Below are positions 21,166 through 60,684 of a DNA stretch of 64,000 bases, piece by piece (the first letter of the stretch is position 1; each line of letters begins with the position of its first letter). Under the pieces are notes generated by a model. It was given only the letters and a program-made list of their open reading frames with translations. It did not search any database and was not told where the DNA came from. Where the stretch lies: assembly GCA_030704665.1 (NCBI GenBank), contig JAUYID010000009.1, positions 662,462 to 726,461 on the forward strand. Direction: 5' to 3'. Origin of the DNA: a bacterium (lineage in GTDB: Bacteria > Patescibacteriota > Microgenomatia > Woykebacterales > RBG-16-39-9b). A program made the translations under genes and the position numbers.

Positions 21166-21253
21166 AGTGAAGAATAATTTAGTTCAGAGGGTTCGACGAG
21201 AAAGAGTGCGTTCTTCCTCGTCGGTGTCTATGCAATCACTAACGCACTAGGTG

Positions 21254-21526
21254 CTAGAACATGATTTTCGCCGAGTTGTCAAAGCCCCAATCTTCAACAA
21301 AGAAGTTGGCCCAGATCACTGTTCCAACAATCATGAGGATGGTGAGGGCTACTGGTATCAGCTCCCATTTTCTCCTCTGTGTATCAGTTGTCAAACTGAA
21401 AACGGCCAGCACCATGGTGGCCGCAGCCAGGTCAAAGACTGGCTTGTTCACCCCAAAGCTCGCGGCGAAGACGACCATCGCCAGGATGAAAACCCAGGTG
21501 AAGCGTTCGCGGATCCAAGTCATCTC
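21254..21526 (-). CDS. Small membrane protein (2 TM) in the GC-rich islet
   Basis: Longest ORF is 21254..21634. I trimmed it to the internal Met (MTWIRERFTW...) because the upstream gene ends at 21550. Confidence 0.35.
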   Translation of the reverse strand, partial: EMTWIRERFTWVFILAMVVFAASFGVNKPVFDLAAATMVLAVFSLTTDTQRRKWELIPVALTILMIVGTVIWANFFVEDWGFDNSAKIMF

Positions 21527-21549
21527 ACTACTCCTTTCGACTTGCGCCG

Positions 21550-21945
21550 TTACGCAAATCTCTCGATGATGATCTTGACTGGCACCGCCAGCAGAAGCAG
21601 CAAGGCACTCAGACCACCACCGCTGTGGATCCAAAAGTCGCGCCGGTTGGCACGACCGTTGAACTCAACACCTTCTTCGGTGATCAGGTAGGTCTTGTCG
21701 ACCACCTCGATCCTGATCCACTCGATCAACTTGAACCACAACACGGCACTGACTACCGCTGCGGGCAAGAAGACTAGCGGGTGGATTCCCAAAACCCACA
21801 CCAGCAGAGGTGGCAGTACCGGCAGTAGCAGCGGTACTCCAATCTTCTTGTAGAAAGGCGTGTGGTCCTTGCCACAAATCAAGTCGTGGGCGATTCTAGC
21901 CGACACGAACTCGAGTCCGGGATGACTTTCCCTTGCCTGAGCCAC
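21550..21945 (-). CDS. Hypothetical membrane protein in the GC-rich islet (GTG start; AAGGAGGA immediately upstream)
   Basis: 131 aa: a proline-rich TM segment followed by a soluble region. Start codon is uncertain. Confidence 0.35.
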   Translation of the reverse strand: MAQARESHPGLEFVSARIAHDLICGKDHTPFYKKIGVPLLLPVLPPLLVWVLGIHPLVFLPAAVVSAVLWFKLIEWIRIEVVDKTYLITEEGVEFNGRANRRDFWIHSGGGLSALLLLLAVPVKIIIERFA

Positions 21946-21978
21946 GACTCCTCCTTCCGGCTTTCGCCAGCTTCCCGA

Positions 21979-22407
21979 TCAGGCACTGACAGGTGATTTC
22001 TTCTGCGCCACCACCAAAACACCCAAACGCATCAGATTGATTCCTGCCACCCTAACCGCACCAACATCGGCAAGATCATCTCGCGAGTCGGACTTGATGA
22101 AAAGGGTCAACCAAAAACCCGGACCAAGTTGCAACAAGAATTCTGCGTCAGGAAGATATCCTCGGATGTCCGTCAGATGAAACCTCACGTTTTCCCTGAG
22201 AAGATCCTCTACCCTCCCAAGACGATCGAGTTCCTGCTCGTCAGTCGTTGCCTCCTTGGCGGCAGCCAACACTATAGCCACTGCCTTGTCAGCTCCATCT
22301 TCATCACTGAAGAAAGCGTGATCCACAACTACCTCCTTGGCATTTGCCTGTTTCTTCCGGTTAGAGCAATTATACTTCTCGTCAGCAAATGAAGGTGTAT
22401 AATCCAA
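21979..22407 (-). CDS. Hypothetical protein in the GC-rich islet
   Basis: 142-aa ORF with no recognisable motif. Other-frame ORFs overlap it. Confidence 0.25.
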   Translation of the reverse strand: MDYTPSFADEKYNCSNRKKQANAKEVVVDHAFFSDEDGADKAVAIVLAAAKEATTDEQELDRLGRVEDLLRENVRFHLTDIRGYLPDAEFLLQLGPGFWLTLFIKSDSRDDLADVGAVRVAGINLMRLGVLVVAQKKSPVSA

Positions 22408-22455
22408 ATCAGCAACACGAAACGAGAGAGCCGAAAGGCTAGAAGGAGATTACCC

Positions 22456-22761
22456 ATGCTCGATGACAAGGTAGGTGAGACCTTTGCCTTTGACCTGGAC
22501 TGTACTCGCGATTGGTATCCAGTCGGAGATATAACCGAGGATGAAGCATGGAATTTAGCCAACTCCGCTGCTCCTCATAGCCAGTGGAATGATGAGGAGA
22601 TCACCGCCTTCATCGGCTACCAATACGCTACTGGCAAACGGGATTGGCCTGAGGAAATTGCTCTGGTTGTCACGGTCGATGAGCAGTTTGCCCATGCAGT
22701 CGTGCGCTGGGAAGGCAACTACTACCGTCTGCGACGGAAAGTTGAACCAGTGGCTGTATAA
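22456..22761 (+). CDS. Hypothetical protein in the GC-rich islet
   Basis: 101 aa. Canonical SD AAGGAGAT 5 nt before the ATG, and protein-like composition. Confidence 0.45.
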   Translation: MLDDKVGETFAFDLDCTRDWYPVGDITEDEAWNLANSAAPHSQWNDEEITAFIGYQYATGKRDWPEEIALVVTVDEQFAHAVVRWEGNYYRLRRKVEPVAV

Positions 22762-22963
22762 CAAGGAGAAGACGATGCCAACTGCACAAGAGTCAGCCTA
22801 CAGAGAACGTCTCAAGAACAGCTGGTGTGCGGTTGCGGCAGCACTGACTACACACAGGTCTGCGACCGTGGCAAGCCCAAGAACGGCCCGCCAGGGCTCT
22901 ACTGTCAATCCTGTTTCGAGGAGGCTGACGAGGATTAGCCAAAAGGCTGGAGGAGAGTTTTCC

Positions 22964-23383
22964 ATGGAAACTTTGCGGTTCCCGGACGATTATGACAGAA
23001 TGAGCCTTTGGCTCGCGACCACACCCGATGGCAGACGGATTGTTGAGGGGAAATTGGAAGAGTTCCCCAATCTCTTCTCCGAACAGTTCGATCAAGGACT
23101 TCGGGAGTTGGGATTCGACAGCGCCAATCTGCTGCGGGTCAAAGAATTAGCCTTGGATTGGCATAGGCAAGGTAGTTCTCAACGCGGACGGCTTTCCAGA
23201 ATCGATGTGGCCCTACTGCGAGCAGTCGAGCAGCAGTTGAGCATGTCTTTGGTGAGCCCACCACTAAAAGTCCGTCTTGAGAAACTCTCAAAGGAACTGC
23301 GACAAAACTCGCGCAAACGGCGTGGCCAGCGGACCGAGAGTCTGCGGGGTGCTGGTAACATCGTCATCGGACCCGGTTGTTAG
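22964..23383 (+). CDS. Hypothetical protein in the GC-rich islet
   Basis: 139 aa (METLRFPDDYDRMSLW...). GGAGGAGAG SD upstream. It is the protein-like 3' part of the 264-aa track ORF. Confidence 0.4.
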   Translation: METLRFPDDYDRMSLWLATTPDGRRIVEGKLEEFPNLFSEQFDQGLRELGFDSANLLRVKELALDWHRQGSSQRGRLSRIDVALLRAVEQQLSMSLVSPPLKVRLEKLSKELRQNSRKRRGQRTESLRGAGNIVIGPGC

Positions 23384-23557
23384 GAGGTGATCCGTGGCAG
23401 GTAACGCAACGGAACGACTACAAATTCGATACCGCAACGGCCGAGCGGTAAAACGCCCGCCTTGGGAAGAAGATCGAGGTGGAATGGTTGTGGTACCAGT
23501 TCACTCACCACTGCCGGTGTCGCAGATACCAAAAGGGCGGGAGTAGAGGAGAAGGTC

Positions 23558-23701
23558 ATGACACGCAAGCGAGGGCGCAAACAGCGCAAGCCCAAGCTTA
23601 CCGTTGAACAAGTCTGGTCCAGAATGGAGCGCTCGCTTGAGGAATGGGAGAAGAAATTACCCAAAGCCTCGGACAAGACGCTCCACATGGTTATCAACTG
23701 A
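23558..23701 (+). CDS. Small basic protein (47 aa) in the GC-rich islet
   Basis: MTRKRGRKQRKPKLTVEQVWSRMERSLEEWEKK... GGAGAAGG SD 6 nt upstream. Confidence 0.3.
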   Translation: MTRKRGRKQRKPKLTVEQVWSRMERSLEEWEKKLPKASDKTLHMVIN

Positions 23702-23729
23702 TAATCAACGGGGCGCAGGATCGACAACA

Positions 23730-23769
23730 CGAGCGACCAAAACTTTTTTGGCCGCTCGCTCCGTTTTTT
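23730..23769 (+). terminator. Intrinsic terminator at the right edge of the GC-rich islet
   Basis: CGAGCGACC-aaaactttttt-GGCCGCTCG stem (one mismatch), then CTCCGTTTTTT. Confidence 0.45.
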
Positions 23770-23787
23770 AGGACCTCTTCCCAAAAA

Positions 23788-24711
23788 ATGTATAATGAAA
23801 AGACTGTGCGGCTTTTTTCCTTTCTTCTCCTTAGTTTAATAGTCCTTTCCTTCCCAGGGAGTATCTTCGCCCACGGTTCTGGTCCCCCAATCCTGCTTAT
23901 GAATGGAAAGTATGCAAACAACAACCCTATCTTTACCTCGAGCACTACTGATATTCCCTTGGGAATGGATGTAGCACCGGAAAATTATTTAGTTAATACC
24001 CAGGTTAAGTTTTCCCTGACCCGCAAGAATTTGCCGGCTCCAAAAGAAGTCATCGATCGCTCTACTTTCGGCTGGAACTTTGCTGATGGCAGGCAGGGCA
24101 GCGGGTTAACCGTTTCTCATACCTTTACCAAACCAGGCACTTATATCGTCAAAATCACCGTCAAAGACCCGACTCAAAATACGGTTTTTGATCTCAATAC
24201 CGTGCAGCTGAATATTCTGCCCAACAAAGACTACTCCCTACCGCAAGCCAAGATAAAAATTAACGGTAAGCTGGTTGCAGACCCCCTCAAGGACACTTTC
24301 AAAGTCAAAAAAGGAGACGAAATTGAATTTGATGCGAGCCAATCTGTTGGCGATGGTTTGTCCTACCAATGGGACTTTGGTGATGGGGTGGCACAGAGAG
24401 GAAAGACTATAAAACATACCTACGCTGCCGACTTCTTCCCTAGTTTTCCACTGCTACGGGTCACTGACAAAAACGGCCTCTACAACGATACTTTTGCTGA
24501 GTTTTTTGGTCCTGAAGGTGGAGAAGGCTTTTTCCCAAACCCAGCCTACAAAGTCAATGATAGCAAAACTTCTTCTCCAACTGCTTCAGCAAACTCAAAA
24601 TCTAAAACTGACTTTCCTCTTTTACCTGCTCTGGGAATTGGAGGGGTAGTAGTATTTCTGACTCTAACTTTTTATTTGACCAAGCTTCGTCGCCAAGTGA
24701 AAAATAAGTAA
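23788..24711 (+). CDS. Secreted/cell-surface protein with two PKD-like domains and a C-terminal TM anchor
   Basis: Signal peptide MYNEKTVRLFSFLLLSLIVLSFPGSIFA. WNFADGRQG...HTFTKPGTYIVKITVKD and WDFGDGVAQRGKTIKHTY are classic PKD motifs. Hydrophobic C-terminus followed by KLRRQVKNK. Confidence 0.6.
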   Translation: MYNEKTVRLFSFLLLSLIVLSFPGSIFAHGSGPPILLMNGKYANNNPIFTSSTTDIPLGMDVAPENYLVNTQVKFSLTRKNLPAPKEVIDRSTFGWNFADGRQGSGLTVSHTFTKPGTYIVKITVKDPTQNTVFDLNTVQLNILPNKDYSLPQAKIKINGKLVADPLKDTFKVKKGDEIEFDASQSVGDGLSYQWDFGDGVAQRGKTIKHTYAADFFPSFPLLRVTDKNGLYNDTFAEFFGPEGGEGFFPNPAYKVNDSKTSSPTASANSKSKTDFPLLPALGIGGVVVFLTLTFYLTKLRRQVKNK

Positions 24712-59401: not shown

Positions 59402-60016
59402 ATGGGAAAGCTCTGCTTTTTTTTCGTTTTGCTTGTTTTTTTTCTTGCTGTTCCAAAGGCTGCTCTTTCTGATATTGGGGTTGGAGTTGGAACTGGAAAA
59501 ATAGTTTTGAATGAAAAACTAAAACCCGGAGCTACCTACAAACTTCCACCGTTGACGGTCTTTAATACCGGCACCGTGACCGCCACTTATAAGATCAGAC
59601 CAGCGTTCAACGAAAAACAATCTCAAAAAAAACCAAAAGCCTCATGGTTCTCATTTTCACCAGAAAAAATTAGTATTAATCCGAAAAAATCAGAAGTAGT
59701 AACAGCGAGACTTTCTCTGCCTTTATCGGCTCCACCGGGAGATTATTTTGTCTATTTAGAAGCCGTTCCTGATCAAACAGTCCAAAAAGGTACTACCTCT
59801 GTGGGAGTAGCTGCCGCTACAAAACTTTATTTCACGGTGGTCCCAGCCAACTTTCTGATGGCTCTTCTTTATCGAATAATATCAATCTATCAGCAATTTG
59901 CACCTTGGAGCTATCTGCTAACCCTACTTGTAGTATCGATAACGCTAATCATAGTGCTGAGGAGAGTCATTATAAGACTTCTCCTCACAATCGCAAGGCT
60001 GCTAGAAAAGATATGA
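59402..60016 (+). CDS. Membrane-anchored surface protein (signal peptide, ~150-aa beta-rich domain, C-terminal TM); DUF916/DUF3324-like in pattern
   Basis: 204 aa. GKIVLNEKLKPGATYKLPPLTVFNTGTVTATYKIRP ... SWFSFSPEKISINPKKSEVVTARLSLPLSAPPGDYFVYLEA, then a hydrophobic C-terminus. Confidence 0.5.
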   Translation: MGKLCFFFVLLVFFLAVPKAALSDIGVGVGTGKIVLNEKLKPGATYKLPPLTVFNTGTVTATYKIRPAFNEKQSQKKPKASWFSFSPEKISINPKKSEVVTARLSLPLSAPPGDYFVYLEAVPDQTVQKGTTSVGVAAATKLYFTVVPANFLMALLYRIISIYQQFAPWSYLLTLLVVSITLIIVLRRVIIRLLLTIARLLEKI

Positions 60017-60069
60017 CCGAATTAAAGTCGCGACTAATAAAAAATGCCAAAGCCTTCCACAGGGACTTT

Positions 60070-60684
60070 ATGAGAAATTTCTGTTTGATTCTTACCATTT
60101 TTTTCTTTTTTCTATTCGTAGCCGCGCTTCCTACTGTAGCTGACGTAGGCGTAGGCGTGGGCACTGGAAAGATCAATGTCACTGAGAAACTCAAGCCGGG
60201 TGCTAGTTACACTCTTCCACCAATGACCGTCTTTAATACCGGCACCGTGACCGCCACTTATAAGATCAGACCAGCGTTCAACGAAACTCAACCGCAGAAA
60301 AAACCGGATGCGAGTTGGTTTTCCTTTTCCCCTGAAAATTTTACTCTTACAACCAAAGACTCCCAAAGAGTCACACCAAGACTTTCTCTTCCTTTGAGAA
60401 CACCCCCGGGTGATTATTTTGTCTATCTAGAAGCTGTACCCGACAAGACAGTTCAGAAAGGTGACACCTCTGTGGGAGTAGCTGCCGCCACCAAACTTTA
60501 CTTTACTGTTGTACCAGCAAACCTCTTCATGGCCATCCTCTACTGGATTATCTCTTTTTATCAAAACTATGCTCCTTTCAGCTACATTCTTACTGCTCTT
60601 TTTGTCTTTGGTGTCCTGACAACTATCTTTAGAAAATACTTTAACTTTTCATTCAGGATTCAAAAGAAAGGCAGAGGCAGCTAA
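60070..60684 (+). CDS. Membrane-anchored surface protein, tandem paralog of 59402..60016
   Basis: Start chosen at MRNFCLILTIFFFFLF (a signal-peptide-like start). An alternative ATG at 60013 overlaps the upstream stop (ATGA). About 70% aa identity to the paralog, with identical nucleotide blocks. Confidence 0.5.
   Translation: MRNFCLILTIFFFFLFVAALPTVADVGVGVGTGKINVTEKLKPGASYTLPPMTVFNTGTVTATYKIRPAFNETQPQKKPDASWFSFSPENFTLTTKDSQRVTPRLSLPLRTPPGDYFVYLEAVPDKTVQKGDTSVGVAAATKLYFTVVPANLFMAILYWIISFYQNYAPFSYILTALFVFGVLTTIFRKYFNFSFRIQKKGRGS

Follow-up and report, generated by a model that had tools for sequence, protein, structure and literature searches.

A cysteine-rich small-protein gene in a Patescibacteriota contig, very probably split over two reading frames by a one-base deletion and annotated as part of a 202-residue chimera

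Which protein is encoded at 22775-22938 of the window, where a cysteine-rich reading frame lies out of frame with a long annotated one? The window is the whole stretch of DNA that was analysed, that is, 64,000 nucleotides (nt) of contig JAUYID010000009.1 from a bacterium of the Patescibacteriota, and the locus lies on its plus strand. Frame 0 is open across a mechanically defined open reading frame (ORF) at 22589..23383, which has 264 amino acids (aa), or 202 aa when counted from the ATG at 22775. The 202-aa ORF is found in the public annotation, on a 938-kb contig, as MDP2671598.1 (locus tag Q8P13_04055). A first-pass annotation of this DNA had pointed out that the ORF is open in that frame and that the ATG at 22775 follows a strong Shine-Dalgarno (SD) sequence; both points were correct, and AAGGAG is read at 22763..22768, 6 nt upstream of the ATG. 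It had also noticed, in the -1 frame, a cysteine-rich ORF of 35 aa ending at 22929. This ORF is present, but it is slightly longer than was thought: from the GTG at 22825 to the TAG at 22936-22938 it translates to VCGCGSTDYTQVCDRGKPKNGPPGLYCQSCFEEADED, which is 37 codons.

We searched the -1-frame translation of 22762-22935 exhaustively, using phmmer, against 1.84 billion representative proteins. The search gave eight genuine small-protein matches, and the best of them, P0002 (54 aa), showed 81% identity with an E value of 6.2e-15, its residues 18-54 being aligned to residues 22-58 of the query. Two other matches, P0005 and P0009, were spurious; they are long repetitive proteins and were discarded when their sequences were read. 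A word-indexed search with a hand-fused 53-aa peptide gave no candidates, and the homologues emerged only from the exhaustive phmmer search. A profile search of a 5.8-billion-protein collection then enlarged the family, which now counts 20 clusters with lengths of 54-130 aa that all come from metagenomes or metagenome-assembled genomes (MAGs); P0002, for example, comes from JGI 3300056388 and P0021 from ENA ERZ27254844. None of the clusters is named, and none carries a Pfam domain. Among species-representative genomes, a scan brought up one member, which is a 54-aa gene of the Patescibacteria MAG JBBTRH010000009.1 (locus L008, 3127-3291). In total, the metagenome and genome scans added only three loci, one of which (L007) is a marginal 16-residue match. 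The first-pass annotation had proposed that the cysteine-rich frame is real coding sequence and that a homology search with it should be made; the search revealed a conserved family and, as described below, explained the two frames.

The homologues also showed where the gene begins. Their first 18 residues (MDAKEKAIYEERIKNGWC) match frame 0 of the window from the ATG at 22775 (MPTAQESAYRERLKNSWC). When P0002 (MDAKEKAIYEERIKNGWCVGCGSADYTQVCDRGKPRNGPPGLYCQGCFEAEDED) was aligned with the window, its residues 1-18 paired with frame 0 and its residues 20-54 with the -1 frame (GCGSTDY...EEADED). The same two-frame pattern was repeated by P0021 and P0023, in which the N-terminal part reads Y-E-E-R-[LI]-K-x-G-[WL]-C. 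The N-terminal identity of frame 0 was 8/18 to P0002 and 9/18 to P0021, and the BLOSUM62 scores were 56 and 49, respectively (shuffle p at most 1e-5). In contrast, the alternative N-terminus in the -1 frame (DANCTRVSLQRTSQEQLV) scored -17 and -7 against the homologues. Seven homologue loci possess a GGAGG-like SD at the place equivalent to the ATG at 22775, and the window gene likewise has its own SD and a start about 17 codons before the first Cys.

The alignment of the DNA located the change of frame. When the window was aligned with four homologues by MAFFT, exactly one one-base gap appeared in the window, TGGTGTG-CGGTTGCGGC as compared to TGTGT[CT]GG. At this gap the window reads TGGTGTG-CGG, and the missing T belongs to the codon of Val19, which is GT[CT] in the homologues; position 19 is V or I in 18 of the 20 family members. 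That is, the 'GC' at 22829..22830 is the remainder of the Val19 codon, and one T is missing between these two bases. The family profile gave 84.6 bits for the repaired gene, 73.2 bits for the -1 frame alone, 71.9 bits for the ORF starting at the GTG, and -1.4 bits for the annotated 202-aa product. The repaired gene has 54 codons, the length of the closest members, and its full-length identity to P0021 and P0002 is 65-70% (81% in the core). The window copy, in its present sequence, is frameshifted, whereas family members are uninterrupted single ORFs of 54-130 codons.

From these comparisons we think it very probable that 22775-22938 is one gene, hereafter called gene B, of 54 codons when intact, which has been split over two frames by a one-base deletion. 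This confidence covers the splitting of the gene and not the choice between possible origins of the lesion. A sequencing indel had been among the readings first offered, and it is right in that a base has been deleted relative to the homologues, be it really or artefactually. Another of them was a -1 shift after MPTAQESAYRERLKNSW; its junction was placed within one codon of the actual one, which is after Cys18.

The course of translation at this locus may then be pictured as follows. Codons 1-18 (22775..22828), which read MPTAQESAYRERLKNSWC and cover the helix at the N-terminus as well as the first knuckle Cys (CxxC), would be read in the frame of the ATG at 22775. Codons 20-54 (22831..22938), which read GCGSTDYTQVCDRGKPKNGPPGLYCQSCFEEADED with the TAG at their end and form a zinc-finger-like core, would stand in the -1 frame after the loss of the T in Val19. 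Translation from the ATG with the strong SD would run out of frame through the rest of gene B and the 25-nt spacer between genes B and C, and would then enter the frame of gene C to give the annotated 202-aa chimera. The 'linker' of the 202-aa ORF (AVAAALTTHRS...GGEFS, 45 codons, 22829..22963) would consist of wrong-frame gene B and this spacer. Gene C (22964..23383) is an independent 139-aa ORFan with a coding-type composition, and its sole match in the database search was its own 202-aa entry, MDP2671598.1. The first-pass annotation had stated that METLRF at the ATG of 22964 has an SD of its own, and GGAGGAG indeed precedes it at 22949..22955, 8 nt upstream. It had also described about 60 codons after the ATG at 22775 as wrong-frame text. 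This holds for codons 19-63, but codons 1-18 are conserved coding sequence.

The codon-position composition favours the -1 frame downstream of the lesion. Over 22825-22935 the -1 frame gave values of 0.41 for G at the first position (G1), 0.38 for A at the second (A2) and 0.73 for guanine plus cytosine (GC) at the third (GC3), and it resembles in this respect gene C and gene A (22456..22761), a 101-aa ORFan that is the first gene of the plus-strand operon. Over the same bases, frame 0 showed a value of 0.43 for C at the second position (C2), which is an off-frame signature. The openness of frame 0 has a simple cause: no codon of gene B ends in TA or TG, and frame 0 is therefore free of stops across gene B into gene C. 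It stayed open in all of 20,000 codon-order shuffles of gene B (100%). We considered whether the stop-free frame 0 might be a sign of a designed fusion, and rejected this idea, since the shifted frame cannot hold stops whatever the codon order is. The antisense ORFs at 22793-23095 and 22798-22965 were also dismissed, because coding on the plus strand is established by homology.

The homologues correct the cysteine pattern as well. The pattern had been given as CxC-x8-C-x14-CxxC; the cysteines are present, but the last spacing is x13, and the first pair is CxxC in the family. Judged from the alignment, the family motif is CxxC-x8-C-x13-CxxC, and the 'CxC' is an artefact of the shift. It appears because the shift joins the last base of TGT to the two bases that survive, and TGC (22828-22830), again a Cys codon, results. 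When the 20 members and the repaired gene were aligned, 14 of the positions were invariant in all 21 sequences: M1, C18, C21, Y26, V29, C30, R32, G33, P35, G38, G41, Y43, C44 and C47. The window copy keeps every one of these residues, C18 being supplied by frame 0 and those downstream of the lesion by the -1 frame. All 20 family members have G16, which is replaced by Ser in the window copy. The acidic -EDED tail is common to the window gene and the family.

Some other features of the family were observed. P0023 (L010 1985-2377 and L011 906-1298) has 130 aa, of which about 75 form an N-terminal extension before the junction ...LEERRRNGWCVGCGS..., and the helix-plus-finger unit can thus be appended to a larger protein. 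In all of the loci L001, L005, L006, L008, L009, L010 and L012, the GC content of the family gene is 5-15 points above that of the surrounding locus. This elevation probably reflects a composition rich in Cys, Gly, Pro and Arg. As it is seen in every genome, the GC-richness of gene B by itself does not point to a foreign origin, although the island around gene B is GC-rich as a whole.

We compared the family with other collections. The best Pfam matches reached 13-15 bits, where the cut-offs are 24-27 (ANCHR-like B-box, SNAPC3, zf_Tbcl_2 and DUF1289). NCBIfam, PHROGs and PADLOC gave no matches, and no sequence relatives were found in the PDB. The tblastn search of P0002 against phage and plasmid collections gave nothing meaningful, and viral contigs yielded no relative of gene A, B or C. 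The family motif and the accession retrieved nothing from the literature, and a general literature search gave nothing specific. The family is rare, with about 20 clusters, and its core of 30 residues is strikingly invariant; none of the domain databases covers it.

A structure of the intact protein was predicted with AF2 on the family alignment. The predicted confidence (pLDDT, predicted local distance difference test) was 83.5, and the model, a confident small fold, showed a helix at residues 3-15, a beta-hairpin at 29-33/41-44, and a helix at 45-52 that starts from the second CxxC. Both Cys pairs, CxxC (18, 21) and CxxC (44, 47), occur without exception in the family as well as in the repaired gene, and the -1 frame alone has CxC in place of the former. 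A knuckle, a hairpin and a CxxC at the N-terminus of a helix together give the look of treble-clef and zinc-ribbon fingers. The fold-search lists were made almost wholly of zinc fingers, but no match was significant. Zn2+ is probably bound by Cys18/Cys21 and Cys44/Cys47. In such a protein, an N-terminal amphipathic helix would be followed by a single zinc-knuckle domain and an acidic tail, and Cys30 together with the Y-x2-V-C-x-R-G-x-P-x2-G loop would form a conserved surface. We infer that the product of intact gene B is most likely a small single-zinc protein that binds, or serves as an adaptor for, another protein or a nucleic acid.

Several points weigh against this interpretation of gene B and its product. 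The comparison at the level of bases rests on members more distant than P0002. The sequence fits a real mutation and an assembly error alike. The zinc binding and the set of ligands are predictions from the motif. Finally, the homologue loci share no conserved gene neighbourhood that hints at a function.

As to the origin of the missing T, we lean slightly toward a genuine and very recent deletion, in an island of GC-rich genes that is foreign and probably dispensable. The following observations speak for it. None of the other 60 long ORFs in the window is broken, the coding density is 93%, and the usual 4-nt gene overlaps are seen. There are 86 homopolymer runs in the window (at least 7 for A/T and at least 6 for G/C), with no visibly broken gene among them, and the lesion itself lies outside any homopolymer. 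The retention of all the invariant residues downstream of the lesion bears on the choice in another way, that is, it suits an artefact or a very recent event.

The alternative within the same explanation is that the T was lost only in the assembly, consensus or sequencing, and that gene B of the organism is intact with 54 codons. We regard this as a serious but somewhat less likely possibility. The lesion is the sole defect of the gene, whose SD, start codon, invariant residues and stop codon are all intact. The site stands in a short GT-repeat context, GGTGTGTCGG. In addition, the GC of the island differs from that of the contig, and the island could occur in part of the population, which would make errors of the consensus likelier. 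Against an indel of this kind stand the absence of any other split gene in the 64-kb window despite the 86 long runs, and a site that is not homopolymeric; from the clean window, the local rate of indel errors is apparently less than about 1 per 64 kb. Exact look-ups of gene A, of the protein P0001 and of the GT39 protein beside the island returned no record.

The remaining explanations take the sequence as it stands, and all of them are improbable. One of them, which had been proposed in the first-pass annotation, is that a micro-protein translated from the GTG at 22825 is the functional product. The ORF (22825..22938, 37 aa) does exist, and with 71.9 bits it keeps most of the conserved core. 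However, no SD is found in GAACGTCTCAAGAACAGCTG, upstream of the GTG, whereas genes A-E and all the homologues have one. The peptide would also be without the conserved N-terminal helix segment and the first Cys of the knuckle, would have CxC instead of CxxC, and would be shorter than any family member (54-130 aa). We therefore regard the GTG as a mechanical start and not as the boundary of the native gene, and consider a native micro-protein very unlikely.

Still less credit can be given to a programmed -1 frameshift, or recoding, near codon 18, by which shifted ribosomes would make the zinc-finger protein and non-shifted ones a fusion of the first part of gene B with gene C. It is true that the conserved protein needs two frames, that the strong SD serves the ATG of frame 0, and that both frames are open at the junction. 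But the openness of frame 0 follows from the codon content alone, and a slippery heptamer of the form X XXY YYZ is absent in 22775-22835 (frame-0 codons AAC AGC TGG TGT GCG GTT). Judging from these codons, the re-pairing of tRNA-Cys (UGU to GUG) or tRNA-Trp (UGG to CUG) in the P site would be poor. The RNA of 22815-22920 folds at -33.8 kcal/mol as compared to a shuffle mean of -35.3 (z = +0.42). Moreover, the genes of L001, L005, L006, L008, L009, L010 and L012, viewed at the DNA level, and the 20 family proteins are all single-frame. The -1 shift of the first-pass annotation thus lacks support as a programmed event, as neither slippery site, structure nor conservation was found. An equally improbable variant is that the deletion is genuine and that recoding independent of a slippery site, at UGG-UGU-GCG, still yields the zinc-finger protein. 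If this were true, one start codon would give two products, namely the zinc-finger protein and the fusion of the first part of gene B with gene C.

No better placed than recoding is the possibility that the native product is the 202-aa protein of the annotation (22775-23383), whose N-terminal region would be disordered and rich in Ala, Arg, Ser and Thr. In its favour, the ORF is single and uninterrupted, has a strong SD, and is publicly annotated as MDP2671598.1; and if the deletion is genuine, the fusion is probably what gets translated. Against these points, residues 19-63 are off-frame in composition, the -1-frame translation of the same bases has a match to a conserved family (E value 6e-15), and gene C has its own SD and ATG. 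The first-pass annotation had noted that conservation of the N-terminal 60 residues of the 202-aa protein among homologs would speak for frame 0; it was not seen, and the only database relative of this ORF was the ORF itself.

The least credible of all is a readthrough of the TAA at 22759-22761, the stop of gene A, fusing gene A to the cysteine-rich peptide: the TAA does share the frame of the cysteine-rich ORF, as had been stated, but the homologues stand alone and start from a Met and an SD of their own where the window has the ATG of 22775, no A-like domain or neighbour accompanies them (tblastn of gene A against all the homologue loci gave nothing at E < 0.6), and the -1-frame text from the TAA to 22825 scores -7 to -17 against their N-termini.

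Returning to gene B as a split member of its family, we examined the genes around its homologues. No gene was common to the island of the window and the 12 homologue loci. The neighbours are PriA and cupins in L001-L004 and ORFans in L010. On its 953-nt JGI contig, P0002 is flanked by an 83-aa fragment and an 80-aa gene. In L005 (4286-6243, a 179-kb Logan contig of SRR26541668), an 80-aa member with a C-terminal extension directly follows genes for a Zip-family zinc transporter, a dCMP/cytidine deaminase and a Zn_ribbon_2 protein. Such a context may hint faintly at zinc handling, but the other loci do not show it. In L008 (1692-5097, the Patescibacteria MAG) and L012 (629-1528), the family gene has NUDIX hydrolase genes beside it or close by, and this proximity could be due to shared genome ancestry rather than to a functional link. 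The protein appears to act autonomously, because its neighbours differ in every genome that has the family gene.

Gene B of the window lies in an island of about 2.5 kb (approximately 21200-23770) with a GC content of 52-58%, while that of the window and the genome is about 43%. The first-pass annotation had called the DNA GC-rich, which is true of this island but not in general. About eight short genes, all of them ORFans, make up the island. They form a divergent pair of operons, with three ORFs on the minus strand (21254-22335) and five genes, A-E, on the plus strand (22456-23701). The island stands between the genes of a GT39 glycosyltransferase and a PKD-domain protein; a GT4 glycosyltransferase gene is also in the flank. 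Genes A-E each have a strong SD. After genes A, B and C come gene D (23394..23546, plus strand, 50 aa), which starts with GTG after GGAGGTGA, and gene E (23558..23701, plus strand, 47 aa), which starts with ATG after GAGGAGAAGG and has a basic N-terminus. A TATAAT-like box is found at about 22398-22403.

The A-E operon is closed, at the right edge of the island, by a terminator-like hairpin (23730-23758, plus strand) followed by a T6 run (23764-23769). The region 23730-23769 folds at -18.2 kcal/mol (z = -4.13), and 0 of 200 shuffles were as stable; it was not among the calls of a simple consensus terminator scan. For the PKD-domain protein, the mechanical ORF (23644-24711) overlaps the end of gene E and the terminator with its first 48 codons. 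Its true start is likely the ATG at 23788, which gives a signal-peptide-like N-terminus, MYNEKTVRLFSFLLLSLIVLSFPGSIFA.

The genes of the island gave no meaningful match with Pfam, NCBIfam, PHROGs or PADLOC, and blastn of the island against phage and plasmid collections found no relatives. Its flanks contained only short repeat matches at the level of chance, and no integrase was found. The Rfam and tRNA scans of the window were empty. In the left part of the island, a plus-strand ORF of 146 aa (21251-21691) lies opposite the overlapping minus-strand ORFs 21254-21634 and 21550-21945, which encode multi-pass hydrophobic proteins. The composition (G1 0.36, GC3 0.61-0.70) favours coding by the minus strand at 21251-21945. 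One of these minus-strand ORFs showed a weak, sub-threshold PADLOC match to an RT-associated SLATT model (E 0.0064).

Far from the island, at 59402-60684, we observed two tandem paralogous genes with a hydrophobic N-terminal segment, each containing ...D[IV]GVGVGTGKI...TVFNTGTVTATYKIRPAFNE...PPGDYFVYLEAVPD... The mechanical start of the second one, 59905, overlaps the first ORF, and its real start probably lies downstream.

The practical consequence of these results is that the entry MDP2671598.1 (202 aa) needs to be divided into a frameshifted 54-codon zinc-finger-like gene and a 139-aa ORFan. Where one frame carries a strong SD and another carries protein-like text, a single-base lesion is reliably indicated. 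The results imply no new mechanism; the biology they show is ordinary, and they are of use as a correction of the annotation. A seed alignment of the family would be a modest but real contribution, as the small proteins of candidate phyla are poorly catalogued.

Gene B can be compared with known systems in three respects. First, YacG, the gyrase inhibitor, and the archaeal C(P)XCG micro-proteins such as HVO_2753 are small stand-alone zinc-finger proteins with paired CxxC. The gene B family is similar to this class in its size (50-70 aa), the N-terminal CxxCG knuckle, the C-terminal [FY]CxxC at the start of a helix, and the acidic tail. It differs from the class in having a fifth invariant Cys (C30) and the RGxPxxGxxGxYC loop. 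A more modest novelty than recoding, though also given little weight, would be that the family represents a five-cysteine metal-binding fold of a new kind, found mostly in Patescibacteria-like genomes. Second, dnaX and the IS3-family transposases are genes with a programmed -1 frameshift, in which, as at our locus, frame 0 and frame -1 combine into a conserved protein. In contrast to them, gene B shows neither a slippery heptamer nor a stimulatory structure, and none of the homologues conserves the shift. Third, there are the ordinary frameshifted genes and pseudogenes that automatic annotation has fused to a neighbour. They share with gene B a single-base indel relative to the homologues and a chimeric ORF, which was called here because the annotator had no homologue. 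It is into this last category that gene B falls, without any differences.
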